Origin: Candidatus Shapirobacteria bacterium
Lineage (GTDB): Bacteria; Patescibacteriota; Microgenomatia; UBA12405
NCBI GenBank assembly: GCA_041665485.1
Contig: JBAYIT010000003.1
Location: forward strand, 67,146-131,145
Direction: 5' to 3'
Length of the DNA stretch: 64,000 nucleotides
Shown here: piece after piece, positions 4,600 to 56,532 of the stretch
Position numbering within the stretch: position 1 is the first letter of the stretch
How the letters are laid out: each line of letters starts with the position of its first letter
The notes under the pieces: generated by a model
Told to the model about the DNA's origin: nothing
Databases searched by the model: none
Seen by the model: only the letters and a program-made list of their open reading frames with translations
Program-made: the position numbers and the translations under genes

Positions 4600-4625
4600 A
4601 AATTTAAAATTAAAAATTTTCTCCA

Positions 4626-5465
4626 ATGACTCGTCTCTGGCACCTGCTTTTCCTGCCACATCCCAAGAATAACCACAAGGCTTTTTTAATTCAACCAGGT
4701 TTTCTTGGCCTTTTTATCGCCCTCTATCTTCTCAACCAATCTTTTATTCGTACTTTTACCATGCTTCGCCCTGGCGTTTTGGGCTATTCCTCCGAAATTA
4801 CCGCCGCCAAAGTTTTAACTCTCACTAACGCTGAAAGGCAACGGGAAAATCTACCCATTCTGGTTTACAACTCAAAACTTGAAGCCTCAGCCACCAAAAA
4901 AGCCCAAGACATGTTTGCCAAAAACTATTGGGCCCACTCTGCCCCCGACGGCACCTCTCCTTGGAGTTTTTTTAAAGATGCCGATTATCAATATACTGTT
5001 GCCGGTGAAAATCTGGCCCGCGATTTTTACGACACTGAAACTATGTTTCAAGCCTGGATGAACTCTAAAACCCATCGCGACAACATTGTCGACAAACGTT
5101 ATCAGGAAATCGGTATCGGTGTTGTCAATGGCATTCTCGGTGGTGTTAAAACCACCCTAGTTGTCCAACATTTTGGTACTCCGGTTGTGGCTGTTGCCAC
5201 TCTCCCCCCAGGCCAGCAAGTTCTTCCCGCCACCGTTGAATCAGGTCCGGCGGTTAAGCCTCAATTTACTCTCAACCCCCTCCTTATCAGTAAGGTTTTT
5301 GGCGGAGCCATCTTTATGATCATCATGGTTGTTTTGGTTGTTGATGCTTTCATCACTCTCAAAAACAAAACCCACCGTCTAAGTGGCTCGGCCACCTCTC
5401 ATCTTGGCTTTATTGCCATTATTTTTCTCCTCTTATTATTTAGCCGTCAAGGCACCATCTTTTAA
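4626..5465 (+). CDS. CAP/SCP (YkwD-like) domain protein, membrane-anchored
   Basis: The CAP-domain signature is present (NAERQ...YWAHSAPDG...GENLAR...AWMNSKTHRDNIV...EIGIGV). Hydrophobic segments lie at both termini. Confidence 0.7.
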   Translation: MTRLWHLLFLPHPKNNHKAFLIQPGFLGLFIALYLLNQSFIRTFTMLRPGVLGYSSEITAAKVLTLTNAERQRENLPILVYNSKLEASATKKAQDMFAKNYWAHSAPDGTSPWSFFKDADYQYTVAGENLARDFYDTETMFQAWMNSKTHRDNIVDKRYQEIGIGVVNGILGGVKTTLVVQHFGTPVVAVATLPPGQQVLPATVESGPAVKPQFTLNPLLISKVFGGAIFMIIMVVLVVDAFITLKNKTHRLSGSATSHLGFIAIIFLLLLFSRQGTIF

Positions 5466-20893: not shown

Positions 20894-20924
20894 ATTTTGG
20901 TTTTTAAAATTTGATATTTAAAAA

Positions 20925-21980
20925 TTGATTAAAAATTTAAAATTTCAAATTAAAAATTATATTGTCGGATTATCTCCCATGGACGGTGTCACCGACGAAC
21001 CCTTTCGTCTCACCCAGTGCCACATCGCTAAGCCCGACCTGATTTTCACTGAATTCGTTAGTGCTGAAGGCATTTCTCGCGGTGGGGTTAAGCTCTACGA
21101 CCAATTGCTCTATTCAGATTCCGAACGCCCAATTATTGGCCAACTTTTTGGCAAAGACCCCGATAGTTTTTACAAAGCCGGAGTTATTCTCTGCCATCTT
21201 GGCTTTGATGGTATCGATATCAACATGGGTTGTCCTGCCAAAACCGTCACTCATCATGGCTCCGGCGCTGCCCTCATCGGTCAGCCCGAGCTGGCCTCGG
21301 CCATTATTAAAGCCGTCAAATCAGCCGTTTCCGACTTTTCTAAGGGCAAAGTTACTATCAACGACCTAAAACTCAACCAAAAAACAATTGAAGTTATAAA
21401 TAGAAATTTAAAATATTCCGATTACCGGTTACAGATTACTGGTTACCAATTACCAAGCGTCAGCGTCAAAACCCGTCTCGGTCTTGATACCCCCGTTATC
21501 GACACTTGGCTGCCCTTTTTACTCGAGCACCAACTAGATTTTCTCACCCTTCATGGCCGGACTCTCAAACAAGGCTATTCTGGCGAAGCCAATTGGGATT
21601 TGATTGGCGAGGCTGGCAAACTTGCTAAAACATTTGCCACCCCTCTTTTTGGCAACGGTGATCTTCAAACCAAACAACAAGCTTTGGATTATTGTCAAAA
21701 ATATAACCTATCTGGTGCCTTAATTGGCCGTTCTGCTATGGGCAATCCTTGGGCCTTTTCTGATCTCATTCCTTCTTGGGAAGACCGTTTTTCTGCCATG
21801 GTTTTCCATGCCCATAAATTCCAAGAAGTTTTCCCCACTCGTCGTCTCGATTGCCTTCGCCACCATTTTCTTCTTTATGTTTCCGGCCATCCCTGCGCCA
21901 AATCCCTCCGTTCCCAAATCATTAAATTTAATCAAGTCTCCGACCTCTATTCCCTCGAATCCGACCTTCTTAGCTCTTAG
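20925..21980 (+). CDS. dus: tRNA-dihydrouridine synthase (Dus family)
   Basis: Dus motifs are present: LSPMDGVTD, NMGCP and a conserved Lys/Cys context in the TIM-barrel flavoenzyme. Confidence 0.8.
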   Translation: MIKNLKFQIKNYIVGLSPMDGVTDEPFRLTQCHIAKPDLIFTEFVSAEGISRGGVKLYDQLLYSDSERPIIGQLFGKDPDSFYKAGVILCHLGFDGIDINMGCPAKTVTHHGSGAALIGQPELASAIIKAVKSAVSDFSKGKVTINDLKLNQKTIEVINRNLKYSDYRLQITGYQLPSVSVKTRLGLDTPVIDTWLPFLLEHQLDFLTLHGRTLKQGYSGEANWDLIGEAGKLAKTFATPLFGNGDLQTKQQALDYCQKYNLSGALIGRSAMGNPWAFSDLIPSWEDRFSAMVFHAHKFQEVFPTRRLDCLRHHFLLYVSGHPCAKSLRSQIIKFNQVSDLYSLESDLLSS

Positions 21981-24389: not shown

Positions 24390-24589
24390 GCTCTGTTTAT
24401 ATCAAACTACCTCTTTTTTGTCAGCCAGTAGATGATTCCGCCCACAATCCCGGCAAACATTGTCACAATTATTCCCAAAAGTATTGTCGTCGTCCCTTCT
24501 TGCATAAAATAATTATAGTTTAAAAATTAGAAATTTTAAATTGAATAAAAATTTCAAATTAAAAATTAAAAATTAGATATAATGGTCCA

Positions 24590-28079: not shown

Positions 28080-28789
28080 TTATCTCTATTTTTAACCACT
28101 ATTACCGTTAATATTAAAAAGACTGCCATAAAAGACAAGAAAAACAGCAAGTTGTTAAGCTCAATTAGTCCTCCTCCCATTTTTCCGGCTCTAAAACCTA
28201 AACTTAATCCTGCCACCATTTCCCGCCACTGGCCGTCAATTCTTGACAACAGCATCTCCTGAGAAAAAAGATTATTAATCAATAGAGTCAATGTGGTTAA
28301 TATAAAAGCCACCACCGGTTGTGACGTCAGGCTAGACATAAACAAACCCAGCGCCAAATATCCCCAGGCCAATAAAATTGTTGTCAACCATTGGGAAATC
28401 ATCGGCCCATAATCCGGCCGGCCCAAGAAATAAACCGTTAGCACTGCCGGTATTAACATCGTCATAACCGAAGCCAAATAAACCGCCACTCCCACAAATT
28501 TTCCCACCACCATTTGCCATTCGTTAATCGGGCTGGTCAGCAACACTTCCCATGTTCCTGATCTTTTCTCTTCAGACAGTAGCCCCATTGCCACTGCCGG
28601 CACAAAAATAGACAGTAAAAATGCCATGGTAGTAAATAGTGGCCCGGCGTCAGCCTGTCCCAAAATAAACAAATCGTTAAAAAATAGCCAATTAGCAATT
28701 ATTAGCAATAAACCGGCAAAAATGTACCCGGTGGGGCTACCCCACCACCCCCGCCATTCTTTAATTGCAATCGCTTTAATGATTCTCAT
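28076..28789 (-). CDS. ABC-2 type permease (GldF-like)
   Basis: Six TM helices are predicted. Its stop overlaps the downstream gene start. Confidence 0.6.
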   Translation of the reverse strand: MRIIKAIAIKEWRGWWGSPTGYIFAGLLLIIANWLFFNDLFILGQADAGPLFTTMAFLLSIFVPAVAMGLLSEEKRSGTWEVLLTSPINEWQMVVGKFVGVAVYLASVMTMLIPAVLTVYFLGRPDYGPMISQWLTTILLAWGYLALGLFMSSLTSQPVVAFILTTLTLLINNLFSQEMLLSRIDGQWREMVAGLSLGFRAGKMGGGLIELNNLLFFLSFMAVFLILTVIVVKNRDK

Positions 28790-28974
28790 TTTAAAATTTA
28801 AAATTTAGAATTAAAAATTTTCTTTTATTGCTATCGCTTTAACTATTTTCATATTTAGAAATTAGAAATTAGAAATTAGAAATTGGAAATTTCTTTCGCA
28901 ATTGCTTTTATTATCTTCATTTTATTTGGAAATTAGAAATTAGAAATTGGAAATTTCTTTTTGGACTTTTTGGA
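28790..28974 (-). repeat. Tandem degenerate duplications of the permease gene 5' end + upstream region, with (GAAATTA)n microsatellite
   Basis: On the minus strand, ATGAAAATAGTTAAAGCGATAGCAATAAAAG (start at 28852) and ATGAAGATAATAAAAGCAATTGCGAAAG (start at 28920) mimic the real start ATGAGAATCATTAAAGCGATTGCAATTAAAG (28789). Each is preceded by AAATTTC/TAATTTC repeats. Confidence 0.65.
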
Positions 28975-29661
28975 CTAATTAGTAAGTTCTACGAACCTTT
29001 TCTCAAGATTCCGGATTTTTTTAGTTTCCTCATCCAGCACAATCCTGCCCTGACTAATTATCACTATCCTGTCGCAAATTTCCCTGGCTTCAGTCAGAAT
29101 ATGAGTCGACAAAATTACCGCCTTATTTTTGGCTATTTTTTTAATTAGCTGTCTGATTTCTATAATTTGGTTCGGGTCTAGTCCGGTTGTTGGTTCATCC
29201 AAAACCATCAGTTTAGGGCTACCCAAAATTGCCCCCGCCACTCCTACCCTTTGTTTAAATCCCCGCGACAGAGTATCTATTTTCTGGCCAGTTACCTCTG
29301 TCAGTCCGCACTCACTTATCACTTTCAACACTTCGGCCTCAATTTTAGCAATCCCCTTAATTTGAGCCATAAATTCCAAATACTCCCTCGTTTTCATTTG
29401 GCCGTATAGCGGGTTATTCTCCGGCAAATACCCAAGATTTCTTTTGTATTCCACTCCTCTTGTGTCAGCCTTCTCTCCCTTCCAGGCAACTTCTCCCTCG
29501 CTGGCTCGGTAAAAGCCGGTAATTATCCTCATTAAAGTTGTTTTCCCTGCACCATTTGGGCCAAGAAGTCCCACTACTCCCGTCCTTCCAATCTCCAAAT
29601 CCACCCCATCCAAAGCAATCTTTTCTCCAAATTTTTTGGTTATTTTTCTCAACTCCAACAT
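28975..29661 (-). CDS. ABC transporter ATP-binding protein (GldA-like)
   Basis: Walker A is GPNGAGKTT, the signature is LSRGFKQR and Walker B is LMVLDEPT. Confidence 0.85.
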   Translation of the reverse strand: MLELRKITKKFGEKIALDGVDLEIGRTGVVGLLGPNGAGKTTLMRIITGFYRASEGEVAWKGEKADTRGVEYKRNLGYLPENNPLYGQMKTREYLEFMAQIKGIAKIEAEVLKVISECGLTEVTGQKIDTLSRGFKQRVGVAGAILGSPKLMVLDEPTTGLDPNQIIEIRQLIKKIAKNKAVILSTHILTEAREICDRIVIISQGRIVLDEETKKIRNLEKRFVELTN

Positions 29662-30559: not shown

Positions 30560-30669
30560 TACTCCTATTGTACCCCCTTTTCTTTCTAGGATCTAAGATC
30601 TAATATCTAGGATCCAATTATTCGTTTATCCGTTGACAACTTAGCAATGCCAATGTTAGACTGCTAACA

Positions 30670-33060
30670 ATGCCTGAAAACATACCTCTCTCTAATCAAA
30701 CGACCACTCTCGAGCCGGTCCGCAAGGTTTTACCTCTCATCCCGCTACGCAATGTTGTCCTTTTTCCTTCTGTGGAAACTTCCCTATTTTTTGGTCGTAA
30801 AGAGTCAACCAACGCTCTTCTTCACGCCTACGATCACACCAATCGTCTGGTTATTATCACTGCCCAAAAACAGTTCAAAACCGAAAAGCCGGCTCTGGCT
30901 GATCTTTACACTGTCGGTGTTTTGGCTAAAATTCAACACATTCTTCAGAGCGACGGCAATCTTCACGCCATTGTCCGTGGCCTTTCCCGAGTCAATATTG
31001 TCAATCTAACCTCTTCCGAAGATCGATTAATGGCCGAGTTTGTTGATTTACCTATCATCCCCGAGTCGGCCACCGATGTTCAGCAGGCCGCCGAGGCCCT
31101 CTTGAGTCAGCTCAAAAAAGCTTTTGCCTCCGGCCGGCAATTCGACCTTCCGGCTATGTTGCAGTTAAGTACTGGTATCAGTAGTAGCGATCTAGCCGAC
31201 CAAATCGGTTTCGCTGTCGAGGCTAAAGTTGCCGAAAAACAGGATCTTTTAGAAACTCTCATGGTCAGCCAGAGGCTGACTAAAGCCACTGAATTGCTTA
31301 TTGGTGAGATGAAAACCAACGAGCTCGAACGCTCAATCGAGCAGAAAACTCAGGAGAAGTTCAACAAACACATGCGTCGCAACATTCTTGAAGAGCGCAA
31401 ACATCAAATCGAAAAAGAGCTCCGTAAACTTGGCACCAAAACCAGAAAAGACGACGACGATTTTTCCGATCTTCGCCGTAAAATAAAAAAGATCGATCTT
31501 CCCGAAACTATTCGCAAGAAGCTTCAAAAAGAGCTTCATCGTCTTGAAGATATGGGCCCCATGGCTCCCGAGTCAAGTTATATCCGCACTTATTTGGAAA
31601 CCGTCACCGATCTTCCCTGGGGCAAATACGCCAAAAACCACGTCACTATTTCTCAAGCTAGCGGTATTTTGGAAGAGGATCATTATGGCCTAAAAGATGT
31701 TAAAAACCGCATTCTTGAATATCTTTCTGTCCTCAAACTTAAATCAAAAAATAAAGACACCACCAGCGCCACCAGCAATATCCTCTGTTTTATTGGCCCT
31801 CCCGGTGTTGGTAAAACCTCCCTTGGTCGTTCCATTGCCCGGGCTCTTGGTCGTGATTTTGTTCGCGCCTCCCTAGGTGGTATCCGCGATGAAGCCGAAA
31901 TTCGTGGTCATCGTCGGACTTATGTTGGCGCCATGCCCGGCCGAATTGTTAAGGGCCTCAAAGACGCCGGTAGTTTTAATCCGGTCTTTATGCTCGATGA
32001 AGTCGACAAAATTGGTGCCGATTTTAGGGGCGATCCATCTTCGGCTCTCCTAGAAACCCTCGATCCCGAGCAAAATCGTGAATTCTCCGATCATTACCTC
32101 GATTTCCCCATCGACCTTTCTCGGGTTTTCTTCATCCTCACCGGCAACGACATTAGCACCATTCCCTACGCCCTCAGGGATCGCTTGGAAATCATTAGTT
32201 TCTCCGGCTACACTCCCGAAGAAAAGCTCCATATTGCCCAAAAATATCTTATTAGCAAACAACTCAAATCCAATGGCCTTGTTGCCGGCAATATCACTCC
32301 CATTACTGCTAATACCCTCAAATATCTTATCGATAAATACACCCGCGAAGCCGGCGTCCGCAATCTCGAAAGAACTATTGCTAGTCTTTTTCGCAAAGTT
32401 GCCAGAAAAATTGTTTCCAAAAAAACCAACAAGGTCGACCTAAACGATCTGGCTCTTATTCGCAAAATGTTGGGCCCGGAGAAATTTCAAAGCCAGCTTA
32501 AGGGTAAAAAAGATGATGTTGGTGTTTCTACTGGTTTGGCTTGGACTAGTGTTGGTGGCGACATTCTCTTTATTGAAGTCAATATTATGCCGGGAAAAGG
32601 CCAGTTAATTCTTACTGGCAAGCTTGGCTCGGTCATGAAAGAATCCTGTCAGGCCGCTCTTTCTTATGTCCGAAGCCAGTCCAAAGAGTTTGGGATCAAA
32701 CAGGATTTTCACAAAATTGATATTCATATTCATGTCCCCGAAGGCGCCACTCCAAAAGATGGGCCTAGTGCTGGCGGCGCCATCACCACTGCCCTTATTT
32801 CTGCCCTAAAAAATCAACCTATTCCTCGCCATGTTGGTATGACCGGCGAAATCACTCTTCGTGGCAACATTCTCGAAATTGGCGGTTTAAAAGAAAAGTC
32901 TCTGGCCGCCCATCGTGCCGGTTTAACCACTATCTTTATTCCCAAAGACAACAAAAAATCCCTTGTCGACGTTCCTCTTGAAGTCAAAAAAGCTCTCAAA
33001 TTTATCCCCGTCGACCACTATTCCCAAATCTACCGCCACCTTTTTGCTCTAAATTCGTAG
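30670..33060 (+). CDS. lon: ATP-dependent protease Lon
   Basis: A LON N-domain (LPLIPLRNVVLFP) precedes the AAA+ domain (GPPGVGKTS) and the Ser-Lys protease domain (PKDGPSAGGA). Confidence 0.95.
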   Translation: MPENIPLSNQTTTLEPVRKVLPLIPLRNVVLFPSVETSLFFGRKESTNALLHAYDHTNRLVIITAQKQFKTEKPALADLYTVGVLAKIQHILQSDGNLHAIVRGLSRVNIVNLTSSEDRLMAEFVDLPIIPESATDVQQAAEALLSQLKKAFASGRQFDLPAMLQLSTGISSSDLADQIGFAVEAKVAEKQDLLETLMVSQRLTKATELLIGEMKTNELERSIEQKTQEKFNKHMRRNILEERKHQIEKELRKLGTKTRKDDDDFSDLRRKIKKIDLPETIRKKLQKELHRLEDMGPMAPESSYIRTYLETVTDLPWGKYAKNHVTISQASGILEEDHYGLKDVKNRILEYLSVLKLKSKNKDTTSATSNILCFIGPPGVGKTSLGRSIARALGRDFVRASLGGIRDEAEIRGHRRTYVGAMPGRIVKGLKDAGSFNPVFMLDEVDKIGADFRGDPSSALLETLDPEQNREFSDHYLDFPIDLSRVFFILTGNDISTIPYALRDRLEIISFSGYTPEEKLHIAQKYLISKQLKSNGLVAGNITPITANTLKYLIDKYTREAGVRNLERTIASLFRKVARKIVSKKTNKVDLNDLALIRKMLGPEKFQSQLKGKKDDVGVSTGLAWTSVGGDILFIEVNIMPGKGQLILTGKLGSVMKESCQAALSYVRSQSKEFGIKQDFHKIDIHIHVPEGATPKDGPSAGGAITTALISALKNQPIPRHVGMTGEITLRGNILEIGGLKEKSLAAHRAGLTTIFIPKDNKKSLVDVPLEVKKALKFIPVDHYSQIYRHLFALNS

Positions 33061-33283
33061 ATTCGTAAATTCTAGATTCCTGTTCTCATATCCCATAACT
33101 TGATCTATATACATATTTAATATATAATTTCGCCAATCTTTTCCCACCTAAAAACATTGGCGTTTTAACCGTGGTTAAGGAGGTTCTTTAACAATCGACC
33201 GCATTGGTTTTATATTATTTTGGTTATTGGTTATTGGAATTTGGTTATTTCCGTTGGAAGGACTCTTTTAAATCCACTACTTC

Positions 33284-33328
33284 AAACTTTTTGGACTTTC
33301 TAACTTTCAAACTTTTTGGACTAAATAG
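33284..33328. repeat. (TTTTTGGACT)n direct repeat, left flank of GC-rich insert
   Basis: The sequence AAACTTTTTGGACTTTCTAACTTTCAAACTTTTTGGACTAAATAG is near-identical to 34701..34738 and to 28957..28977. Confidence 0.7.
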
Positions 33329-33399
33329 TGGCTTTACATGAGCCCTTCCAACAATTCGGTTGGTAAGGTACCTAGGCCTGCTCGGCCAGGAGGTGCGCC

Positions 33400-34581
33400 A
33401 TGAAGCGCAAGTTCTCTCTTCCGTTGTTCGGGTTGTTCTTGGCCGCCCTATTGTTTTTGGGCATCGCATCGACTGCCGAAGTTTTGGCAGATTCGCCAAT
33501 CGTTAGCACCAGTTCCTGGTGTTCGAGTGATGGGACACCCATCGTCTCACTGCAAGCCGTCAACACCTTTTCTGGTCCGATCTGGACAGGTATGGGCGCG
33601 GGCGACTTCTTCCCGATGATTGTCGGCTACGATGGCCCGAGTTCGATTTACGGTGGCTATGTTTTCCCTGGCTACGCGAGTTCCATTTGGGGCACACCCA
33701 AAACCGTATTTTTGTCGCGCAACATGAACTACTGGTTCGACCTCTTTGAAGGGGATTACAACACTGGTCCAGGCCGTGTTATCACCTACACAGACGGTTG
33801 GACGCCTGCATGTGGTAGCTCCATCACCCAGACTGCACCAGCGACTATCACTCTCGGCGAAGTTATCACCTACGAGCTCGAGACGGCGCATCAGTTCCGT
33901 CTCCCGTATATGTCAGTCGAAACTACTGTTCCCGAGAATATGGACTTCATTGGTATCGGTACGATCACCCCACCCAACTCTCGATGTGCGAGGGGTGCCG
34001 CAGGTGGCTATGATTCCAAGACACGGATTCTCCGTGTTGGTACCGGTACCGGAATCTGCGCCGGTGACAGTCTCAAAGTCACCTACATGCTGAAGCCCAA
34101 AACGGCAGGGACGTCTGTCATCACTGCTTGCATTAGCCCTTCCAAGAGCCAGTGTGTGAACACTACGACGACAGTGGTAGATACCGAACCGATCTGCGAC
34201 TTGCCATTGAACACAACGTGGCAGGACGCCTTGGCCGTGACCAACGGTGGAGTCTATACCACCAGCCTGCCCGGGCAACTGGGTCTCGACGGTGTTTGGT
34301 ATAGCCTCGTGCTGACACGGACGTCCGATCTAAGCATCCTCGTCGAGGACCTGAGCGGTGGCGCGAGTGGGGACATTGCTTTTTACGACCGGCAGGGTTT
34401 GCCCGTATCTCGGCTGTCGACAACATCGACCGATGATGCGGCACTTCTCTGGCCGGGTCTGCCTAAGGGTGAGTATTGGGTGAAAGTTTCCCAACACAAT
34501 CCCGAGATCTGTCCTCGTGTCCGGGTGACCATCGGCTGGGTCAATTGGAGAGCGACCTTTCTCCCCCTGATCCAGCGCTAA
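33400..34581 (+). CDS. Secreted protein of foreign (visibly GC-rich) composition with C-terminal PPC (pre-peptidase C-terminal)-like domain
   Basis: Signal peptide is MKRKFSLPLFGLFLAALLFLGIASTAEVLA. The C-terminal segment, YSLVLTRTSDLSILVEDLSGGASGDIAFYD...GEYWVKV, fits the PPC pattern. The base composition differs strikingly from the flanks, and nested other-frame ORFs are GC artefacts. Confidence 0.55.
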   Translation: MKRKFSLPLFGLFLAALLFLGIASTAEVLADSPIVSTSSWCSSDGTPIVSLQAVNTFSGPIWTGMGAGDFFPMIVGYDGPSSIYGGYVFPGYASSIWGTPKTVFLSRNMNYWFDLFEGDYNTGPGRVITYTDGWTPACGSSITQTAPATITLGEVITYELETAHQFRLPYMSVETTVPENMDFIGIGTITPPNSRCARGAAGGYDSKTRILRVGTGTGICAGDSLKVTYMLKPKTAGTSVITACISPSKSQCVNTTTTVVDTEPICDLPLNTTWQDALAVTNGGVYTTSLPGQLGLDGVWYSLVLTRTSDLSILVEDLSGGASGDIAFYDRQGLPVSRLSTTSTDDAALLWPGLPKGEYWVKVSQHNPEICPRVRVTIGWVNWRATFLPLIQR

Positions 34582-34700
34582 ACCTAGCGACTCGGTTTCT
34601 TACCTGTTGTTTTAGGTAAGAGATCGAGTCCCCCTAGGGGGACTCACCAACACCAACCAACAAGCTCCAATGCGGTCGATCTCTCAAAATTTTGTCTTTA

Positions 34701-34738
34701 ACTTTTTGGACTTTCTACTTTTTGGACTTTTTGGACTA
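34701..34738. repeat. (TTTTTGGACT)n direct repeat, right flank of GC-rich insert; supplies ArgS stop codon
   Basis: ACTTTTTGGACTTTCTACTTTTTGGACTTTTTGGACTA is read from the sequence. The ArgS TAG stop is the CTA at 34736-34738. Confidence 0.7.
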
Positions 34739-36421
34739 CATCCTCTCCACCACCTCAATCCCCAGCAACCCAAGTCCTTTCTTAATCGTCTGCGCTGTTT
34801 TTTGGGTTAGCCACAAGCGCCATTCTTCCTCCGGTTCGCCAATTATCCTATATTTATTATAAAACTCGTTGTATTTTCGAGCCAAGGCCAGAAGATATTC
34901 CGCCACCACCGATGGCGCCAGCCTCTCTCCCGCCTCAACTATCTTTTCCGGAAACTTCCCCAACTCCCTCACCACCCCCATTTCCTCTGCTTTTATATTT
35001 TCCAAATTCTTAGTTCTTAGCTCTGTGTTCTTAGTTCTAGATTTAGCGAGCAAGCTTGCGCAGCGAGCGTAGGTATATTGCAGGTACGGCCCCGAATCGC
35101 CATTCAAACTCATAATCTTGTCCCAATCAAAAATCACATCCTTTTTTGGGTCAGAAGATAGATCACTAAATTTCACCGCTCCGATTGCCACTGCTTTAAT
35201 CATTGCCTCTTTCTCTTCGGCCCCCATCTCTTTTGAAATTTTTGACGTTTCAGCAATCTCTCTGGCCGCTTTAATGGCGTTATCAATCACATCCGAAAGA
35301 TGGATAGTATCGCCTTTTCTGGTAGAAAATTTCCCAGTCGCCCAGCGAATCAGCCCGTGTCCAAGGTGATAAAACCCCTTTGATGGTTCCCAGCCCATTA
35401 ATTTCGCCGCCGCAAACACTTGCTTAAAATGCAAATTTTGTTCTGAGCCAACTTCGTAAACAATTAAATCCGGCTTCCAGGTTTCCATTCTATATTTAAT
35501 CGTTGCCAAATCACGGGTAAAGTAGGTCGTCGCATCGTCTGTTTTCAAAAGCATCGCCGGTGGCAAATCATCAAACTCAACGATCAAGGCTCCTTGGCTC
35601 TCGGAGGCCAACCCCCTCTTTTTGAATTCTTCCACAATCTCCTGCCACATCGACGAATAAAAAGCCTCGCCCAGAGCATAATCAATTTTTACTCCAAGCA
35701 TTTCATATACTCGGTTAAATTCTGCCAAAGATATGTCCACACATTTTTGCCAAATCTCTCCTGCTTCTTTATCTTTTTTCTCCAACTTGGCAAACCACTC
35801 TCGCCCCTCATCTTTTAATTTCTCGTCTTTTTCCGCTTCCTCGTGAAATCTAACATATAGTTTTTCTAGGTCCGCAATTGCCATCTCTTCCACTGGTTTG
35901 TCACCCCAATGTTTAATAGCACAAATCATTTTGCCAAACTGCGTTCCCCAATCGCCCAGGTGGTTGTCGCCAATGCATTTCCACCCCAAAGTTTGGTAAA
36001 TGTTATAAATTGCTTGGCCGATGTTGGTTGATCTTAGGTGGCCAATTCCAAACGGCTTGGCAATATTAGGAGCACTATAGTCAATCACCATTGTTTTCCC
36101 TTTACCTGTTTGGGGAATTTCTTGCTTTTCTGCACTTTCAATCAAATACTCCGGTTTTAAATAAAAATTAATATATCCCCCAACCACTTCAATTTTTTCT
36201 ATCACACCATCCGAAGCCTTGGCGAAGGATTGGTCTAGTTTTTCTTTTATTTCATTAGCAATTTCGACAGGGGATTTCTTTAATTCTTTGGCTAGTGTCA
36301 TTGCCACATTAGTGGTGTAATCGCCAAAATTCTCATTAGTTGTTCTGGTAACCTCCGCCTCATGTCCGGCTTGTTCTAATGCTTCTTTAATATATTTTAC
36401 TGCCATGGCTAATTCTACCAA
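34736..36421 (-). CDS. argS: Arginine--tRNA ligase
   Basis: The HIGH region is SAPNIAKPFGIGHLRS. The GDSGPYLQYTYAR region and a C-terminal DALR-type anticodon-binding domain are present. Length is 561 aa. Confidence 0.9.
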   Translation of the reverse strand: MVELAMAVKYIKEALEQAGHEAEVTRTTNENFGDYTTNVAMTLAKELKKSPVEIANEIKEKLDQSFAKASDGVIEKIEVVGGYINFYLKPEYLIESAEKQEIPQTGKGKTMVIDYSAPNIAKPFGIGHLRSTNIGQAIYNIYQTLGWKCIGDNHLGDWGTQFGKMICAIKHWGDKPVEEMAIADLEKLYVRFHEEAEKDEKLKDEGREWFAKLEKKDKEAGEIWQKCVDISLAEFNRVYEMLGVKIDYALGEAFYSSMWQEIVEEFKKRGLASESQGALIVEFDDLPPAMLLKTDDATTYFTRDLATIKYRMETWKPDLIVYEVGSEQNLHFKQVFAAAKLMGWEPSKGFYHLGHGLIRWATGKFSTRKGDTIHLSDVIDNAIKAAREIAETSKISKEMGAEEKEAMIKAVAIGAVKFSDLSSDPKKDVIFDWDKIMSLNGDSGPYLQYTYARCASLLAKSRTKNTELRTKNLENIKAEEMGVVRELGKFPEKIVEAGERLAPSVVAEYLLALARKYNEFYNKYRIIGEPEEEWRLWLTQKTAQTIKKGLGLLGIEVVERM

Positions 36422-48807: not shown

Positions 48808-49902
48808 ATGCAAAAAAGAAAGGGGGGTAAACCCAGAATATTATCTTTATTTTCCGGGTGCGGAGGGCTGGACTTAGGATTCGTACAAGAAGACTTTAGG
48901 ATTGTTTGGGCAAATGATTTTTATCATCCTGCTTGCGAAACATATAAGAACAACTTTGGTGACCACATTTTCGAAAGAGATATTACCGAAGTCGATTTTA
49001 AAAATCTTCCGGACTGCGATATTATCACGGGAGGGTTTCCTTGTCAGGATTTTTCAATGATTTGGAAGCGGGGAGGTATCGGCACCGATAGGGGCAATTT
49101 ATATAAATATTTTGTTAAAGCAGTATCCGCAAAGTTACCCAAAATATTTGTTGCAGAGAATGTTAAAGGTCTCCTCACCGCGAATAAAGGAATGGCGATA
49201 AAACAAATCGTTGAAGATTTTCAAAAGATCGATCATTCGGGTTATAGAATTTATATTAATCTATATAACTTTGCAGAATACGGAGTACCTCAATTAAGAG
49301 AAAGGGTCATTATTGTGGGTGTAAGGAGCGACATCCCCTTTAAGTTTCGTAAACCTGCTCCAATCCGTAGTCAAAATAATTACGTGACCTCTAAAGAAGC
49401 CCTTAAAGACGTTGAAAAAGTTGTATATAACAATGAGCACATAAATATAATGGAAAGGACTAAAAAAATAATAAGTTTAATTCCGCCGGGAGGAAATTTT
49501 ACCGATATACCAAAAGACAGCCCTTATTACGTAAAGGGAATGATAAGCCACGTATATAGGAGACTCCATCCGGACAAGCCCTCGACAACGATAATTGCAG
49601 GCGGTGGTGGCGGTACATGGGGTTATCATTTCAATGAACCTAGACCATTAACAAACAGAGAAAGAGCTCGATTATTCGGATATCCGGACGATTTCATATT
49701 CACAGGTTCTGTCGCTGAAGTTAGAAAGCAAATTGGTAACTCAGTTCCGCCTCCGGGGGCCAGAGCAGTAGCGAAAGAAATAAAAAAGCTCTTTAAAGAA
49801 ACGTTTACGCCGGTAAATGTGAACAATTTAAGACCATTATCCGGGGATGCGTTAAAATACATTAGTTATGATGAATCGGGAGAGCTTAAACTAAAAAAAT
49901 AA
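48808..49902 (+). CDS. DNA (cytosine-5)-methyltransferase
   Basis: Motif I is LFSGCGGLDLGF, motif IV is GGFPCQDFS, motif VI is ENVKGLL and the motif IX/X region is RERARLFGYPDDFIF. Confidence 0.9.
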   Translation: MQKRKGGKPRILSLFSGCGGLDLGFVQEDFRIVWANDFYHPACETYKNNFGDHIFERDITEVDFKNLPDCDIITGGFPCQDFSMIWKRGGIGTDRGNLYKYFVKAVSAKLPKIFVAENVKGLLTANKGMAIKQIVEDFQKIDHSGYRIYINLYNFAEYGVPQLRERVIIVGVRSDIPFKFRKPAPIRSQNNYVTSKEALKDVEKVVYNNEHINIMERTKKIISLIPPGGNFTDIPKDSPYYVKGMISHVYRRLHPDKPSTTIIAGGGGGTWGYHFNEPRPLTNRERARLFGYPDDFIFTGSVAEVRKQIGNSVPPPGARAVAKEIKKLFKETFTPVNVNNLRPLSGDALKYISYDESGELKLKK

Positions 49903-49903
49903 T

Positions 49904-50920
49904 ATGCTATGGAATAATGTCGACACTTTAGGCGGAGATTTTATAAATCAAGTAGACACAGAGTTTGGCGATGCCCTTGGAGTAACAATCGCTTCGGGAT
50001 ATGTTTCTTTGGATATTATCAATAAGTATTATTCTAATTTTCAAACAATTTCACAAAACGGAGGGTCGTCAAGATTGTTGGTTGGAATGGCCTTTTATGA
50101 GGGATTGTCAGCAAATAAACTGTCATTGTTGACTAGTCTTAATAATCAATTAAAACAAACAAATGAAAATAACGGAGTATTTGTGAGCTACAATGGAAAA
50201 TTCCATGGGAAAATATACCAGTTCGACAAAGACGCAGGAAAATCCTACTATTTAGGATCGTCGAATTTTTCCAGAAGCGGTTTATCTGGAAACATTGAAT
50301 GTACAGCATCCATTTCTGATTCGGACACACAATCGAGACTAAGTACATTTATAGGCTACTTATTCTTGCCAGAAAATGCCATCCATATTGATAAGGCGGA
50401 AATTGTAGTACCCGGAAGTTCAGAATATCGACAAAAAATGGCGATTACTCTCGACGATCTTGAAAAATACGATCCAGCAACTGTCGATAAGTCGATCCTC
50501 CCAATTTTTGAATTCCCTCTTTCGCGTATTGCCAATAAAGAAAAGTCAAATTTAAACGCGTATTTTGGGAAGGGTCGATGGTCAAGGGCAACTGGAAAAA
50601 TCGTTCCTAGGCCCTGGTATGAAGTCGAATTAATAGCCGACAGTAGTGTTCGAGGTACTCCGTTATACCCTAGAGGCGATTTTAAAGCATATACCGATGA
50701 CGGATATATTATCCCAATGGTAACCAACGGAGACTACGATAAAAATATAAGATCCAAAAGTAATTTAAAGATACTTGGCCAATGGATAAAGAACAAACTT
50801 CAAAAAAGCGGTGCATTACTCCCGTTAATGCCGGTCACTCAAGATACTTTGGACGCATATGGACGAAGTTCTATAAACTTCTACAAAATAAGGGATGGTA
50901 AATACTACATGGAGTTTTAA
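49904..50920 (+). CDS. PLD-family restriction endonuclease (BfiI/NgoAVII-like: N-terminal HKD catalytic domain + C-terminal DNA-binding domain)
   Basis: The HKD motif is HGKIYQFDKDAGKSYYLGSSNFS. It lies directly downstream of the MTase with a 1-nt spacer, and the product is 338 aa. Confidence 0.5.
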   Translation: MLWNNVDTLGGDFINQVDTEFGDALGVTIASGYVSLDIINKYYSNFQTISQNGGSSRLLVGMAFYEGLSANKLSLLTSLNNQLKQTNENNGVFVSYNGKFHGKIYQFDKDAGKSYYLGSSNFSRSGLSGNIECTASISDSDTQSRLSTFIGYLFLPENAIHIDKAEIVVPGSSEYRQKMAITLDDLEKYDPATVDKSILPIFEFPLSRIANKEKSNLNAYFGKGRWSRATGKIVPRPWYEVELIADSSVRGTPLYPRGDFKAYTDDGYIIPMVTNGDYDKNIRSKSNLKILGQWIKNKLQKSGALLPLMPVTQDTLDAYGRSSINFYKIRDGKYYMEF

Positions 50921-51983: not shown

Positions 51984-53783
51984 TTAGCTATAAATTTCTC
52001 TTGGGTCAGTCGTCAGTAGGGGATGTTCTTTTTCCGAAGCCACCACCTTTAAAGCCACATGGTTTTGATCGGCAATAATCAATGCCTCACCCCGATCGCA
52101 AGTTAACAAGAAATGTTGTTCATAACCGCTTAAATGAAACTCTTCCGCCACTTTCTTAATCGTCGTCGTATCCTGTTTCATTAACACTCGCAGTGATGAT
52201 TGGGAGGCAATCGCTCGGCCGTATTCGGAACTCAAAAAATCATTGGCTTGTTGGGAAATAATCGTTACCCCCAGATAATACTTTCTTGCCCGTCTTACTA
52301 ATCCCGAGATATAGCGCGCACTTTCTTCCTGTTGTAAAAGTATCCACCCCTCATCAATTACCAATATTCTTTTTTGCGGATGAGTCTTTACTTGTGAATT
52401 AACAAAATTAGCAATCGTCAACATCATAATTGGTCGCAAGGTTTCACTAAGATCTTTAATATCAAAAACTACCAATCGGTTATCAAGTTCAATATTAGTT
52501 TGGGAATCAAACACAGAAGACAATGACCCTTTGACAAATCTTTCTAATCGGTCGCCTAAATCTTTCTGTTTCAGCCGCTTAAGTGTTTTGTAAAAATCTT
52601 TAAGTAGCGGGAACTCCTGTTTCTTTTTCGCCTTATTCTTGCCGTTTAGGGTATAGCCAAACTCTTTGTAAGTCAGAATAATCACCCTATCTACCACCGC
52701 TTTTTCTTCCGATGATAACCCTCCAACCATCAGGGAGATTATTTCTGTTAAATCCTGAATGTGTTCCGACAAACCATTTTCACCGGTCACAGTCGTGGTT
52801 GAAAAATCAAAGGGGTTGATTTTTTCTTTTGATTTAGCCGAAAGCTGGATATAAACACCATCAACCGAGGCCGCTAATTGTTTATATTCCCGCTCTGGAT
52901 CAACCACAATTACCCGAGTCCCCTGCATCAATTGTCTTAAAATTTCCACCTTGGCGGTATAGCTTTTGCCAGATCCCGATTGAGCAAAGATAATACTATT
53001 GGCGTTAGTCAGAGAAAAACGGTCAATTATCACCAATGAATTATTTGACCGATTAACCCCATAGAGTATCCCCGACTCTTGAACCAATTCCGACGACACA
53101 AACGGAAATGTCAGTGCCGCCGATGAGCTGTCTAAGTTTCGTTTTTGATCTAAAAGGTTTTGGCATCGGGGCAAAATAGATTGCAACCCCTCAACTTGTT
53201 GAAAGGTGGCCGTTTTTATATAAAACATTCGGGTTGACATCACTGTTTCTAAAAGAGTCGTCAATTTTTGTAATTCAGATAAAGAATCAGCCGAAATCGT
53301 CATATATATTGAGACTTGAAATAGCTTTTCCTGCCCCCTCAAAATCTTATCTTTTAACTCCATGGCCGATTCCAGTGGATCAGTAATTTCGCTCCCCACC
53401 ACCTTACCATCTTTAAACATGTTTCTTTTAGTCGATTCCAACTCCGTGATTTTTCGGTTTAACTTAGGTAGGGCCAAGAGGGGATCGACTTGTTCTATGT
53501 GATAGGCAATATCAATATTATGGTTAAAGTTAATCAGCATTGATAACCAGCCGGTTGTCGCCACATAGGGGTAGCCGGAAATAAACAGGGTTCTAATATA
53601 ACGATTACCGATTTGCAAGTAACTCGAATCTTCTTTTAGTCCGGAATAGGAAATTAAATCCACCTGATCTTGTTCGCCAAAATAGAAGTTAACCGATTTT
53701 TTTGGCGTTTGGATTTTTACCAATTTACGCTTTCTTTTTAGAATCGGCTTCATTTTTTGGATCCGTTTTTTTAAATTAAACAT
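51984..53783 (-). CDS. VirB4/TrbE-like type IV secretion ATPase, C-terminal (ATPase) portion
   Basis: Walker A is FAQSGSGKSYT and Walker B is RILVIDEGW. The DUF87-like context is typical of VirB4. Confidence 0.7.
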   Translation of the reverse strand: MFNLKKRIQKMKPILKRKRKLVKIQTPKKSVNFYFGEQDQVDLISYSGLKEDSSYLQIGNRYIRTLFISGYPYVATTGWLSMLINFNHNIDIAYHIEQVDPLLALPKLNRKITELESTKRNMFKDGKVVGSEITDPLESAMELKDKILRGQEKLFQVSIYMTISADSLSELQKLTTLLETVMSTRMFYIKTATFQQVEGLQSILPRCQNLLDQKRNLDSSSAALTFPFVSSELVQESGILYGVNRSNNSLVIIDRFSLTNANSIIFAQSGSGKSYTAKVEILRQLMQGTRVIVVDPEREYKQLAASVDGVYIQLSAKSKEKINPFDFSTTTVTGENGLSEHIQDLTEIISLMVGGLSSEEKAVVDRVIILTYKEFGYTLNGKNKAKKKQEFPLLKDFYKTLKRLKQKDLGDRLERFVKGSLSSVFDSQTNIELDNRLVVFDIKDLSETLRPIMMLTIANFVNSQVKTHPQKRILVIDEGWILLQQEESARYISGLVRRARKYYLGVTIISQQANDFLSSEYGRAIASQSSLRVLMKQDTTTIKKVAEEFHLSGYEQHFLLTCDRGEALIIADQNHVALKVVASEKEHPLLTTDPREIYS

Positions 53784-54396: not shown

Positions 54397-54880
54397 GCAA
54401 GCCTCCTTGTTTGCCTAACTTAAAACTTAAACTATTTTTTTGATTGTTGATGACATGTAAAAACTTTACCGATTCAACTTGGGCTAATTCGTTTTCTTTT
54501 CTGTCAACCGGCCTGGCAGAATTTACAGTCACTAATTTCCTTTTCTTTTCCATAATTGGTATCTCAATATCTCGAAGATAATTATCGTTCTTATTAAAAA
54601 TAAAATACATCGGTCGAACATTGAATCGCCATAAAATTAATAGCCAACTTAAAACCACCCTCCCCTTAATTCGGAGAGACAGAACTAAACACACAAACAA
54701 AACGATGACTATCAATGGCAGTTTGTACCAAGCCAATTTCATTACCGGTGGCACAAAAGCAAAAAGAACCGTTGTCCAAAAAATCGGGATCATCAGAATA
54801 AATATCTGCGTTATATTTAAGTTCCCGGCAATCTTATCTTCAACTGTGGTTATTTGAGCTGGAATTACCGTTGTCCTCAT
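54368..54880 (-). CDS. T4SS small membrane protein (VirB3/PrgI-like, tentative)
   Basis: Two or three TM helices are predicted. The gene sits immediately upstream of VirB4 on the same strand, which is the VirB3 position. Confidence 0.35.
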   Translation of the reverse strand: MRTTVIPAQITTVEDKIAGNLNITQIFILMIPIFWTTVLFAFVPPVMKLAWYKLPLIVIVLFVCLVLSLRIKGRVVLSWLLILWRFNVRPMYFIFNKNDNYLRDIEIPIMEKKRKLVTVNSARPVDRKENELAQVESVKFLHVINNQKNSLSFKLGKQGGLHVALKQIKK

Positions 54881-56184
54881 GCGTGAACCTCCTTTCGGGG
54901 CGATTTAGCCGTTGCTTTGGCGGTGGCCGAGTTTCTGGAGATCGAAGACGAATTGTCAGCCGTTATAACGTTGATTATTTGGCCTCCTAACTTTTTTAAC
55001 TTTCCATTACCAGAGGTATAAAACATCATGTTAGTTATTAATGAAGGGGTCTTAAGTAAGGTTAAAAATAGACCAATGGCCACGGCAATCGATATCAATG
55101 AGTTATTCGAGTGTTCCGGTAGGGCCAGAAACGACGACGCCAACTGAATCACCACCACATGCACAAAAACTATAAAAATAGTCGCCACATATGATTTAGT
55201 TGCAATTTCTGCAAAATCCGAAAACTTAGGTATTGTCCATAAAAGAAATACAAAAGGAGAAAGTACTGCCCCCAATGACACAAAAATTAACCTGGTTATA
55301 TACATGAAAAGTAAAACAATAGCCACGATTAAAAAGATAATTAAAAATATAAGAGTAATTAAAGGGGTGGTTCCGGTTATCAGAGTAGTTGGGTTGATAA
55401 TATTGACCACCCACGAGTGACTTAAGCCACCAGTCGAATTCAATACCGCACTAACCAAAGCGTTACAAGTAATGATTGTATAATCGGCCAAAAACAATGA
55501 GATGTTGGCGCCCAAAAAGAATAAGCCAAGCCGAGGCAAAATTTGTTTAAACTCGACTTCTTCAAAGCCAAAAGTATCAGCACTCATCAAATGAAGCCCC
55601 AAAACCGCCGCTACCACCACAAACAGCGAATCAACGATCCCCAACGATATCATCCAAAAATTAACGATTACCTGATTTGAGAGCAAATTCGGGGTAGTAG
55701 TCAGATAACCAAGGATGCCGTCAACAATCGGTCTGGTTGCACTCTCCACAATGTTTTGCATGAAAGCAGACATGGCATCAATTAATACTTGGGTTAATCC
55801 GTCACTTGGTTTAACTGAATTAAGGGGGGCGAGAGTGATCGCCGGAGTAGTTCCGCTACCCGACCCTGACGACAAAGCGTTGCTAAAAAGGGAAATTAAA
55901 ACTCCGGAGACGAGCACTATCACCAGGCCCATCATCGTATTTCGAATCGTTTGTTTGGCCGAGATTAATGATTGTGGATTACCACTTGAGGTTAAATATT
56001 GATAACCAGCTTTGATTAAGAAAAACACCCCCGCTATTCCCGCAATTGCCGTAATAATCGTTAAAGTATCATTGGTATAAGTCGTTATTTCACTTGCCGT
56101 CGTGACTGCTAGAACTTGCCTGGAGGCCGCCAAACTCATGCTTAAAAACCCAATCACAGATACTAGAACTCTTCGTAAGAACAT
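54877..56184 (-). CDS. Fusion of VirB2-like pilin N-domain with VirB6/TrbL-like polytopic membrane domain
   Basis: The first ~100 aa, IITAIAGIAGVFFLIKAGYQYLTSSGNPQSL...LVIVLVSG, parallel the adjacent pilin (GLISAGFFVWGGIGYITSSGNPEAL...LAIVLGA). At least six TM helices follow. Confidence 0.5.
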   Translation of the reverse strand: MFLRRVLVSVIGFLSMSLAASRQVLAVTTASEITTYTNDTLTIITAIAGIAGVFFLIKAGYQYLTSSGNPQSLISAKQTIRNTMMGLVIVLVSGVLISLFSNALSSGSGSGTTPAITLAPLNSVKPSDGLTQVLIDAMSAFMQNIVESATRPIVDGILGYLTTTPNLLSNQVIVNFWMISLGIVDSLFVVVAAVLGLHLMSADTFGFEEVEFKQILPRLGLFFLGANISLFLADYTIITCNALVSAVLNSTGGLSHSWVVNIINPTTLITGTTPLITLIFLIIFLIVAIVLLFMYITRLIFVSLGAVLSPFVFLLWTIPKFSDFAEIATKSYVATIFIVFVHVVVIQLASSFLALPEHSNNSLISIAVAIGLFLTLLKTPSLITNMMFYTSGNGKLKKLGGQIINVITADNSSSISRNSATAKATAKSPRKEVHA

Positions 56185-56193
56185 AAGAACACT

Positions 56194-56532
56194 TTATTGA
56201 GTTGTTGAACCACCAAAAGCACCGGTGGCCAATTGGGTTACTACCGTGGAGAGAACAAAAGCTCCCAAAACAATGGCTAAACCAATTGCTGAATAAAGGA
56301 TTGTTTTCTTTGATCGGTCTAAAGCTTCTGGATTACCAGAACTAGTAATATAACCAATTCCTCCCCAGACAAAAAAGCCAGCCGAAATTAGACCAGCCAG
56401 GGTTACTAACACCTGTATCACTCCTTGGATAAAGGTTTCGATCTTAATAACATCGGCCGACACCGCCAAGGTGGGTGTTGCCAAGAGAAGGAAAGATAGT
56501 AATGTACCGGAAAGTACCATTATCTTTTTCAT
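56194..56532 (-). CDS. VirB2/TrbC-like T4SS pilin
   Basis: A signal peptide precedes two hydrophobic helices with a conserved GGIGYITSSGNPE loop. Confidence 0.55.
   Translation of the reverse strand: MKKIMVLSGTLLSFLLLATPTLAVSADVIKIETFIQGVIQVLVTLAGLISAGFFVWGGIGYITSSGNPEALDRSKKTILYSAIGLAIVLGAFVLSTVVTQLATGAFGGSTTQ

Follow-up and report, generated by a model that had tools for sequence, protein, structure and literature searches.

A GC-rich gene between lon and argS of a Shapirobacteria bacterium as a probable resident of a conserved expression unit

How does a gene of foreign-looking composition come to lie between two housekeeping genes, in a spacer framed by short direct repeats? The question is raised by a 64,000-nt stretch of DNA from a Candidatus Shapirobacteria bacterium (contig JBAYIT010000003.1, positions 67,146 to 131,145; hereafter the window), in which a gene for a secreted protein of 393 residues stands between lon and argS. 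An initial annotation had described this gene as conspicuously GC-rich, unlike its surroundings in codon usage, full of nested open reading frames (ORFs) in other frames and bracketed by near-identical direct repeats, and had read the ensemble as the repeat-mediated acquisition of a single cargo gene. Every element that it listed is present in the sequence, and its interpretation as a whole is partly supported. When computed, base composition and codon usage proved anything but uniform and set the gene apart as a strong outlier. G+C content is 0.53-0.58 over positions 33400-34600 and 0.40-0.47 in the flanks, the G+C content of third codon positions (GC3) tops that of all 61 ORFs of the window (mean 0.394, standard deviation 0.074; next highest value 0.507), relative synonymous codon usage (RSCU) shows no correlation with that of the gene's own host (r 0.01) and five other-frame ORFs of at least 80 codons are nested within the coding sequence (CDS).

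The answer that we find probable is that the gene is no recent arrival, but the resident of a self-contained conserved expression unit, lodged in a plastic lon-argS slot of one subclade of Shapirobacteria, which belong to the Candidate Phyla Radiation (CPR). At the level of sequence, comparison of related loci shows conserved flanks around divergent but related cargo, a common codon regime that is not that of the hosts, covariation in a 3' hairpin pointing to RNA, and a repeat shared by the 5' and 3' ends that changes in concert between loci. The unit would begin with a sigma-70-like promoter and a ~265-nt leader containing a long hairpin and, just ahead of the ribosome-binding site, a small one; the CDS and two stem-loops in the 3' untranslated region (UTR) would follow, the terminal segment of the unit being complementary to a segment of the leader. 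Within it only the CDS would be G+C-rich and hypervariable, and would code for a Sec-exported, all-beta, adhesin-like protein.

We recognised the unit by its conserved promoter and 5'UTR, its 3'UTR and its product family, and know it from three complete and two partial instances, the latter ending at contig ends (loci compared are numbered L, proteins P). Searches with nhmmer found both 5' and 3' blocks in the window and in two independent assemblies of it (L001, L002), in L070/L071 and in L003/L004 (L003 being the contig that carries protein P0003), only the first 5' block in L069 and only the 3' block in L066/L067; the three blocks gave no further copy in the window or in ~700 kb of relatives. 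The first 5' block (block A) corresponds to L070 10474-10595, recurs at the end of L069 and is partly found in L003, and its promoter-like motif, which scored 10/12 in a promoter scan, is invariant in the window, L070 and L069. The second (block B, 33324-33402) leads from the 3' arm of the long hairpin to the ATG, passing through GGCCTGCTCGGCC-AGGAGGTGCGC-ATG. Aligned with L070, the window is identical at 75% of nucleotides in block A and 81% in block B, 70% in the lon CDS and 64% in the argS CDS; in the cargo CDS identity falls to 53%, which is about random.

In the window, L070 and L003 alike, the leader is predicted by RNAfold to form the long hairpin, with a compensatory change of C-G to U-A in L003; the loci have its base stem (GGAAGGxCU.../...AGCCCUUCC) in common and differ entirely in the sequence of its apical part. 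The small hairpin before the ribosome-binding site has a different hairpin, TTGCCCAAAGGGCAA, in its place in L003. Beyond the hypervariable CDS, similarity resumes at the last codons and continues for ~100 nt through the two stem-loops, a CACCAACACCAA tract and a final ...GCGGTCGAT (window, L066, L070 and L003). In 3'UTR hairpin 1, six pairs carry compensatory changes and one invariant U.G pair is valid only in RNA of the + strand, while hairpins of the form CCCC-N4-GGGG, equivalent to hairpin 2, are found in L066, L070 and L003. Rfam models scanned over 32900-35000 at E<=1 returned only noise-level hairpins (miRNA and 7SK models), with no known riboswitch or leader among them, and 15 matches of TTCTTTWACANNCGACCG in viral contigs are due to chance, as none is similar to the modules any further. 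As a minor point, 18 nt of the 3' arm of the leader hairpin (33334-33351, TTACATGAGCCCTTCCAA) recur within the CDS (34128-34145, TTGCATTAGCCCTTCCAA) with 16/18 identical positions, a resemblance that we estimate to be only marginally beyond chance.

The feature that ties the two ends of the unit together is a new finding: an inverted repeat of 14-20 nt that links the presumed 5'UTR with the 3' end and co-varies between loci. In the window the two copies match perfectly over 14 nt, a length reached in 0/500 shuffles, and the 14-mer has no other copy elsewhere in the window or in the other loci compared. At the homologous leader position, L003 carries ACAAACGACCGCAGA, complementary to its own 3' end over 15 nt (again 0/500 shuffles), and L070 carries ACATCGACCG-TTT-GGAAATAT, complementary to its own 3' end over 10+8 nt, while the longest such 5'/3' match in control genes (n=40) is 7-10 nt. 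The distal parts of the repeat differ between loci and agree within each locus. With the promoter ~65 nt upstream of the left copy, both copies would be carried by the mRNA, and we favour pairing of the mRNA ends as the reading of this repeat because the neighbouring 3' structure behaves as RNA. Base pairing between 5'UTR and 3'UTR regulates some mRNAs, such as icaR of Staphylococcus aureus. The likeness lies in a 3'UTR segment perfectly complementary to the 5'UTR of the same gene, with covariation in three loci; the difference is that here ~190 nt separate the 5' partner from the ribosome-binding site downstream, which it leaves uncovered, and that the pairing is deduced from DNA alone. The paired segments, together with the stem-loops, would control stability or translation.

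The order argS (convergent), lon and then era is kept in ~40 Shapirobacteria-like loci with ArgRS 53-67% identical to that of the window, in which the lon-argS gap measures -2 to ~1750 bp and holds assorted small ORFs of native low GC, with neither a homologue of the gene nor a TTTTTGGACT array (the decamer repeated on either side of the gene in the window). An ArgRS search of genome and metagenome contigs gave best relatives of <=67% identity, none of them with the cassette; closer relatives (L065-L071 and L087-L089 among them) were reached via a protein database and then their contigs. Over all loci compared the gap ranges from -2 to 2760 bp with variable contents, and the gene is absent from the interval of most relatives. 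In L070/L071 (Lon 79% identical) a 340-aa signal-peptide protein ending LLPFALR directly follows lon, its gene having a GC of 0.564 and a GC3 of 0.695 within a 0.425 locus (L071 and L001 share one JGI sample). In L066/L067 (ArgRS 81%) a different GC-rich gene (GC 0.54 vs 0.425), whose product ends RLPLVQR, is convergent with argS. L069 (Lon 90%) has a Wzy_C gene, a proline/threonine-rich (PT-rich) protein, a terminator and the start of the promoter module at the contig end, and L065/L089 (Lon at least 90-94%) have Wzy_C, a PT-rich secreted protein of 180 aa and a 268-aa protein ending IYLPLVTK. L088 (ArgRS 69%) has no more than the PT-rich protein and Wzy_C, and L087 (Lon 78%) is empty, with a 22-bp gap. 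Empty sites containing a single repeat, which the initial annotation would have led one to expect, did not turn up: empty or near-empty lon-argS sites exist (L008, L015, L028, L043 and L087) and none holds the repeat, the closest relatives compared being ~90% identical in Lon.

The slot also gathers other surface-related genes. An O-antigen-ligase-like Wzy_C gene and a signal-peptide protein of 180-200 aa with a long Pro/Thr-rich linker recur in the slot of this subclade (L065 3638-6225, L069 2401-4132, L070 11878-13452, L088 11223-12900 and L089 2669-5256), and in L070 they are ordered differently with respect to the GC-rich cassette than in L069.

The repeats that gave the locus its appearance of an insertion deserve a closer look. 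Exact TTTTTGGACT occurs seven times in the window, always on the + strand and at three sites (28958 and 28967; 33288 and 33313; 34703, 34719 and 34728), where we estimate that chance would give less than one exact copy of a 10-mer in 64 kb. Two of the sites form a direct repeat of 42 nt, 86% identical (33285-33326 and 34700-34741), with an identical 18-mer, AACTTTTTGGACTTTCTA, so that the brackets around the gene described by the initial annotation are real; so are the provision of the argS stop by the right copy (CTA, 34736-34738) and that of the ABC ATPase stop by the third (28975-28977). The left array lies within the conserved 5'UTR, 75 nt upstream of the ATG, with conserved sequence on either side (33090-33207 and 33324-33402). 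Since it occupies the variable apical loop of a conserved hairpin it lies inside the conserved unit and, flanked as it is by conserved sequence, the arrays do not separate foreign from native DNA; the compositional shift begins ~35-75 nt to its right. In the place of the right array, L066 shows hairpins of unrelated sequence and in L065 the argS stop is followed directly by (CCGTGAT/CCGTAAT)n, and ArgRS ends at the same residue in relatives (...ERM or ...EKM, then stop), so that the length of the protein is unchanged.

Such arrays are commonplace in this DNA. Tandem Repeats Finder (TRF) reports 45 arrays in the window, 18 of which fall within the 13.5% of bases that are non-coding (p about 1e-5), and returns 50 rows for the real sequence vs 11-21 for shuffles, from which it follows that the TTTTTGGACT arrays belong to a genome-wide class of short tandem repeats. 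Rather than scars of insertion, they would be repeats that took hold where they are tolerated, in a hairpin loop and in the spacer at a gene end, and the identical 18-mer, together with the resemblance of 'ATTTAG' to 'ATGTAG', suggests that one array was copied from the other. Repeats with units of 7-15 nt occur at, for example, 3412-3450, 20903-20958, 24520-24575, 28855-28891, 30585-30618, 33050-33079 and 33220-33249, and the related units TCTAAGA, TTCTTAG and TTTCTAG recur at several loci of the window. Four arrays (TTTAAAA, TTAGAAA, GAAATTA and CTTTTTGGA) lie between the start of the ABC permease gene and the stop of the ABC ATPase gene (28790-28976), where the first ~30 nt of the permease gene recur twice in degenerate form (28822-28851 and 28896-28922; real start 28761-28789), which gives the impression that the gene start was duplicated together with the repeats. 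Heterocystous cyanobacteria have comparable short tandemly repeated repetitive (STRR) heptamers in their intergenic DNA. The likeness, which concerns the TTTTTGGACT arrays only, is in arrays of 7-10-nt units, rich in non-coding DNA, with the same unit at several loci; phylum and units differ, and here two arrays supply the stop codons of genes. We know of no function for STRR or for the TTTTTGGACT arrays.

The cargo itself is an orphan or close to it. A word-indexed search of 5.8 billion clusters returned the protein itself as sole match, and an exhaustive HMMER search over 1.84 billion representatives added four weak relatives (P0002, P0003, P0004 and P0005), so that the search for a donor lineage ended with no donor in either collection. 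P0003 and P0005 are small proteins that match the N-terminal ~110 residues (E 8e-8 and 2e-10, respectively), and the profile of this N domain aligns with the 340-aa protein of L070 (hhalign E 7e-5). These alignments put the relationship of the cargo proteins at the limit of detection; all of them end in tails of LPL/LPF type, and each allele is a singleton 90% cluster among ~15 billion proteins. The genes of the N-domain relatives P0003 and P0005 are GC-rich within low-GC contigs (GC3 is 0.64 for P0003 and 0.50-0.60 for two genes of L005, neighbouring genes having a GC of 0.26-0.45), and the RSCU of the window gene correlates with that of the L070 340-aa gene (0.48), of P0003 (0.57) and of the L066 slot gene (0.42), host genes of two hosts correlating at 0.69 with one another. 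The 268-aa gene of L065 is host-like in RSCU (0.62). The GC shift hits C/T-ending, G/A-ending and four-fold codons alike and is therefore not simply a preference for C-ending codons; translational selection for such codons was considered as sole cause of the high GC3 and rejected, as G-ending codons rise equally.

We read the product as a protein that is exported, all-beta and adhesin-like and that ends in a rare putative sorting tail, a description that leans in part on a structural model. By inspection, the N-terminus (MKRKFSLPLFGLFLAALLFLGIASTAEVLA|DSP) has MKRK, a hydrophobic core of 19 residues and the VLA|D site of a signal peptide, in agreement with the initial annotation. The C-terminal domain, which had been called PPC-like, is a more delicate case. 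Pfam gives no match for the full protein, nor does its PPC model (PF04151) for residues 275-393 scanned alone at E<=10. Indirect evidence speaks for the label, in that residues 295-367 match P0002, in 15 stretches (phmmer E 1.3e-12), and residues 296-365 of P0004, both being giant PPC-repeat proteins, and Pfam PPC maps to residues 297-367 of P0004; the label is reasonable, though not established. When the domains were scanned one by one, the sole addition was a sub-threshold match to Por_Secre_tail, and NCBIfam offered nothing for the whole chain except a noise-level CcmE (E 0.14) far under its cutoff. An AlphaFold model built from the single sequence is of low confidence (predicted local distance difference test, pLDDT, 51.6), and its local Foldseek matches include the ColH collagen-binding domain 3jqw (root-mean-square deviation 2.7 over 82 aa), the C-domain of Tk-SP and cohesin/Ig modules.

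The tail, TFLPLIQR, in which F replaces the Y of the YLP-box, scores 14.1 bits on NF053834 ('ultrashort_CTERM', cutoff 10) and 13.1 bits on NF050076 ('sort_motif_YLP', under its cutoff of 15) when the last 21 residues are scanned alone; neither model is reported in the scan of the full-length protein. The 268-aa slot protein of L065 scores 17.4 and 17.8 bits on these models, and no other ORF with a YLP-type tail was found in the window, nor in relatives outside slot genes. With the proteins that these models describe, which bear a putative sorting motif, it shares an extreme C-terminal tail and an N-terminal signal peptide; the models concern the tail only, and are silent on the cassette, the composition and the hypervariability of this gene. 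A literature search on the YLP-box motif found no paper, and we know of no cognate sorting enzyme.

Could the gene nevertheless have come from outside? In the model of the initial annotation, a recent repeat-mediated insertion brought in one foreign gene and the TTTTTGGACT arrays are the duplicated target or recombination site, which accounts for the 42-nt direct repeat and its identical 18-mer, for the 'ATTTAG' of the left copy where the right copy has the 'ATGTAG' of argS, for a composition outlier and for a gene missing in most distant relatives. This acquisition is not borne out, and we regard it as highly improbable and close to refuted by the sequences: the left array sits within the conserved leader, whose two sides are also conserved in relatives that have no arrays, L070/L071, L066/L067 and L069 carry the unit in the same lon-argS interval without TTTTTGGACT, in essence the outcome that the initial annotation had named as its own refutation, L003 has no TTTTTGGACT either, and no integrase, transposase or other mobility gene was seen among the ~50 window ORFs scanned. 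Moreover, chance would have to account for the pairing of a 'host' half with an 'insert' half both in the 30-nt hairpin arms and in the 14-nt inverted repeat, and simple target duplication, which would split both in this way, was rejected. That the gene might be a fragment of another organism joined to its neighbours by an assembler is suggested by the short tandem repeats around it, at which short-read assemblers can mis-join, and by Logan contig L002 (1.5 kb, equal to window 33219-34729), which terminates inside such repeats. Such a chimera is extremely unlikely, since the gene and both its junctions are identical in the window, in the independent JGI contig L001 (9.1 kb) and in L002, three assemblies from different pipelines, since L002 runs from host-type leader through the gene to the array adjoining argS, and since the arrangement of a low-GC argS or lon beside a GC-rich gene with the same UTRs recurs in other projects. 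A transfer confined to the CDS, by which a GC-rich gene from an unsampled donor recently replaced the resident allele within the cassette, suits the gap in GC3 between gene and host (0.632 vs 0.394), the uncorrelated RSCU, the coincidence of the compositional boundary with the CDS and the proximal UTR hairpins, and the orphan status of the gene in very large databases. We consider it unlikely: no donor-like homologue appears among the 1.84 billion representatives, the only N-domain relatives occupy low-GC, cassette-like contexts, and three other cassette alleles, in other genomes, share an equally GC-rich codon regime, which would require repeated imports from one unseen source; replacement via the flanks would in turn need a donor with the same flanks and thus of the same clade. 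In deviating composition and codon usage and in patchy distribution among relatives the locus does resemble a horizontally acquired genomic islet, from which it differs in having no mobility genes, no boundaries made of tRNA genes or repeats and no donor that was found, in regulatory flanks common to relatives and in other alleles that deviate likewise.

Other explanations take the inverted repeat, and not the direct one, as their starting point. A site-specific recombinase acting on it could flip the 1.49-kb segment 33194-34680 and so uncouple the gene from the promoter at 33100-33128, as in an ON/OFF phase-variation switch. Inverted repeats flanking the gene with a conserved promoter outside them would fit, as would copies that are identical within a locus and different between loci, which is expected if recombination homogenises them, and the repeated breaks of Logan contigs around the gene. 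These breaks are not at the edges of the repeat, however, one orientation is seen in nine assemblies of four loci (window/L001/L002, L070/L071, L003/L004 and L066/L067; assemblies hide minority orientations), no recombinase was found among the scanned ORFs of at least 100 aa in the 64-kb window, and the G.U pair specific to the + strand in the 3'UTR indicates a function at the level of RNA, all of which makes such a switch quite improbable. Known invertons share with this locus short inverted repeats, identical within a locus, around a segment whose orientation to a fixed promoter would set expression; here no second orientation is seen in assemblies, no recombinase is seen in the ORFs scanned and the whole gene, not the promoter, would flip. 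Perfect inverted repeats of 14-15 nt around the gene might also be the termini of a non-autonomous element, similar to a miniature inverted-repeat transposable element, moved in trans by a transposase, and the contexts of the unit do vary (after lon, after the PT-rich gene, beside Wzy_C and, in L003, beside toxin-antitoxin genes). This is very unlikely in our opinion, as in the window, L070, L069 and L003 the conserved unit reaches ~105 nt further out than the left repeat and includes the promoter, so that the repeats are not termini; there is no target-site duplication at the repeats (AACA| vs |CTCT), the window has a single copy and ~700 kb of relatives has none outside the slot except that of L003, and no transposase is present among the window ORFs scanned. 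An integron gene cassette was also rejected, given the unit's own conserved promoter, its occurrence as a single unit and the lack of an integrase in the window (no search with attC models was made).

A resident expression unit accommodates these observations best when its alleles are renewed by homologous recombination via the conserved flanks and/or are under strong diversifying selection, which we infer because the protein would be exposed on the surface of an episymbiont. The high GC would then be upheld by recombination (GC-biased conversion) or by a clade-wide gene pool, and not by recent import from outside the phylum; our best guess is that recombination-linked biased conversion within a clade-wide allele pool explains the excess. 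Several points weigh against the resident unit: (i) promoter, extents of the UTRs and 5'-3' pairing are predictions from DNA, (ii) a GC3 of 0.63-0.70 in a genome of ~0.40 is unusual for a long-resident gene, GC-biased conversion being a hypothesis, (iii) in L065/L089, the nearest relatives by Lon, the slot has a YLP-tail gene that is host-like and lacks the long leader, so that the unit has a patchy distribution, which transfer between lineages could also explain, (iv) the unit stands on different sides of Wzy_C in L070 and L069 and so moves within the slot, (v) few instances are available, so that the covariation statistics rest on three sequences, and (vi) the domain assignments are soft, given the low pLDDT. 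We also entertain, tentatively and as a doubtful proposition, a bolder version, in which Shapirobacteria possess a 'swap-in' cassette whose conserved promoter, leader and trailer bracket a CDS that is replaced or diversified far faster than the genome. Its leader and trailer ends, complementary in a manner specific to each locus, may be crossover sites for an undescribed way of flipping or swapping genes, or else a device for pairing mRNA ends, and the excess in G+C, ~15 points for the CDS and ~24 points for third codon positions above the genome, may be the footprint of diversification, for example by recombination-driven biased conversion.

The closest parallels to a resident unit with exchangeable cargo are variable surface or S-layer expression sites such as slpA/slpB of Lactobacillus and sap of Campylobacter fetus, which have conserved flanks and long, structured, stabilising leaders. 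The likeness comprises a single site with a strong promoter and a long 5'UTR that forms hairpins, expressing a secreted surface protein whose coding part is sharply different between close relatives while the flanks are conserved; here, in contrast, no silent copies or invertase are seen, and the protein is small and made of adhesin-type domains. To our knowledge, neither a G+C-rich coding regime nor complementary 5'/3' ends are features of S-layer systems. This matters because attachment to other cells is the way of life of CPR bacteria, whose surface proteins, as far as we know, are almost wholly uncharacterised. With a regulatory shell that is more conserved than the adjoining housekeeping genes, a product that is essentially unique to each sampled genome and a rare putative sorting tail, the locus is a strong candidate for a determinant of host interaction or phage evasion. 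It also offers a case for studying how a high-GC island with no identifiable donor lasts in a reduced, low-GC genome, and a lesson for annotation, that is, that a 'GC-rich gene flanked by direct repeats' can mislead where intergenic DNA is full of short tandem repeats. The features on which the argument was built are collected in Table 1.

Table 1. Positions of the features of the lon-argS interval, its neighbours and the encoded protein (numbering of the window, or residues of the protein where marked aa)
Feature	Position	Strand	Remarks
Third TTTTTGGACT array	28957..28977	+	belongs to a 190-nt stretch of short tandem arrays; supplies the ABC ATPase stop
lon (endopeptidase La), left neighbour	30670..33060	+	Pfam Lon_C, LON_substr_bdg, AAA
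5' block A	33090..33207	+	promoter-like TTGATC-N17-TATAAT (33100-33128), then leader as far as the left inverted-repeat copy
Left inverted-repeat copy, ATCGACCGCATTGG	33194..33207	+	14 nt, presumed 5'UTR; perfect with 34667-34680
(TTGGTTA)n short tandem repeat	33220..33249		variable leader stretch; TRF; absent at this position in L070
Long 5'UTR hairpin	33253..33352	+	arms 33253-33282 / 33323-33352; 30-nt inverted repeat I1, 83% complementary
Left TTTTTGGACT array	33285..33326	+	apical loop of the long 5'UTR hairpin; loop unrelated in L070 and L003
Small hairpin, GGCCTGCTCGGCC, then Shine-Dalgarno AGGAGG	33375..33393	+	identical in L070
Secreted-protein CDS	33400..34581	+	393 aa, NCBI MFA6518873.1; GC 0.553, GC3 0.632
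3'UTR hairpin 1	34589..34630	+	17 bp; 98% of cells paired across window, L066 and L070
3'UTR hairpin 2, GAGTCCCCCTAGGGGGACTC	34626..34645	+	G+C-rich stem and tetraloop
Right inverted-repeat copy, CCAATGCGGTCGAT	34667..34680	+	right end of the conserved unit
Right TTTTTGGACT array	34700..34741	+	between unit and argS; includes the argS stop (CTA)
argS (arginine--tRNA ligase), right neighbour	34736..36421	-	Pfam tRNA-synt_1d, DALR_1, Arg_tRNA_synt_N
Signal peptide	aa 1-30		by inspection of the translation
Family-specific N domain	aa ~37-145		
Ig/cohesin-like domain	aa ~140-262		
PPC/collagen-binding-like domain	aa ~295-380		
YLP-box tail TFLPLIQR	aa 386-393		

Some further observations concern the surroundings of the unit. 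The ArgRS of three close relatives (P0007, P0009 and P0011; L068 907-3357, L064 8001-10067 and L088 8841-11273) is called as 688-816 aa, with an N-terminal tRNA-binding B3_4 domain fused to it, the ArgRS of the window being 556-561 aa long. The contig of L064 ends, in the European Nucleotide Archive, in the Illumina adapter AGATCGGAAGAGCGTCGT (10067-10084) right after a premature argS stop, which is an assembly artefact. Exported proteins are also encoded near the start of the window, where a run of genes at 133-5465 includes a signal peptidase of S26 type, a 713-aa Lamin-tail/Big_13 protein, an fn3 protein and a CAP-family protein, none of them with a YLP-type tail. At the other end, from ~39000 to 64000, GC falls to 0.31-0.40 from ~0.43 in the first 39 kb, and this half carries a C5 DNA methylase with an NgoFVII-type endonuclease (48808-50920), a DUF2130 protein, an SMC-like protein, a TraG/VirB4-like ATPase (51984-53783), two pilin genes of a type IV secretion system (54877-56532) and an M23 peptidase, which gives it the look of a type IV secretion and restriction-modification island.

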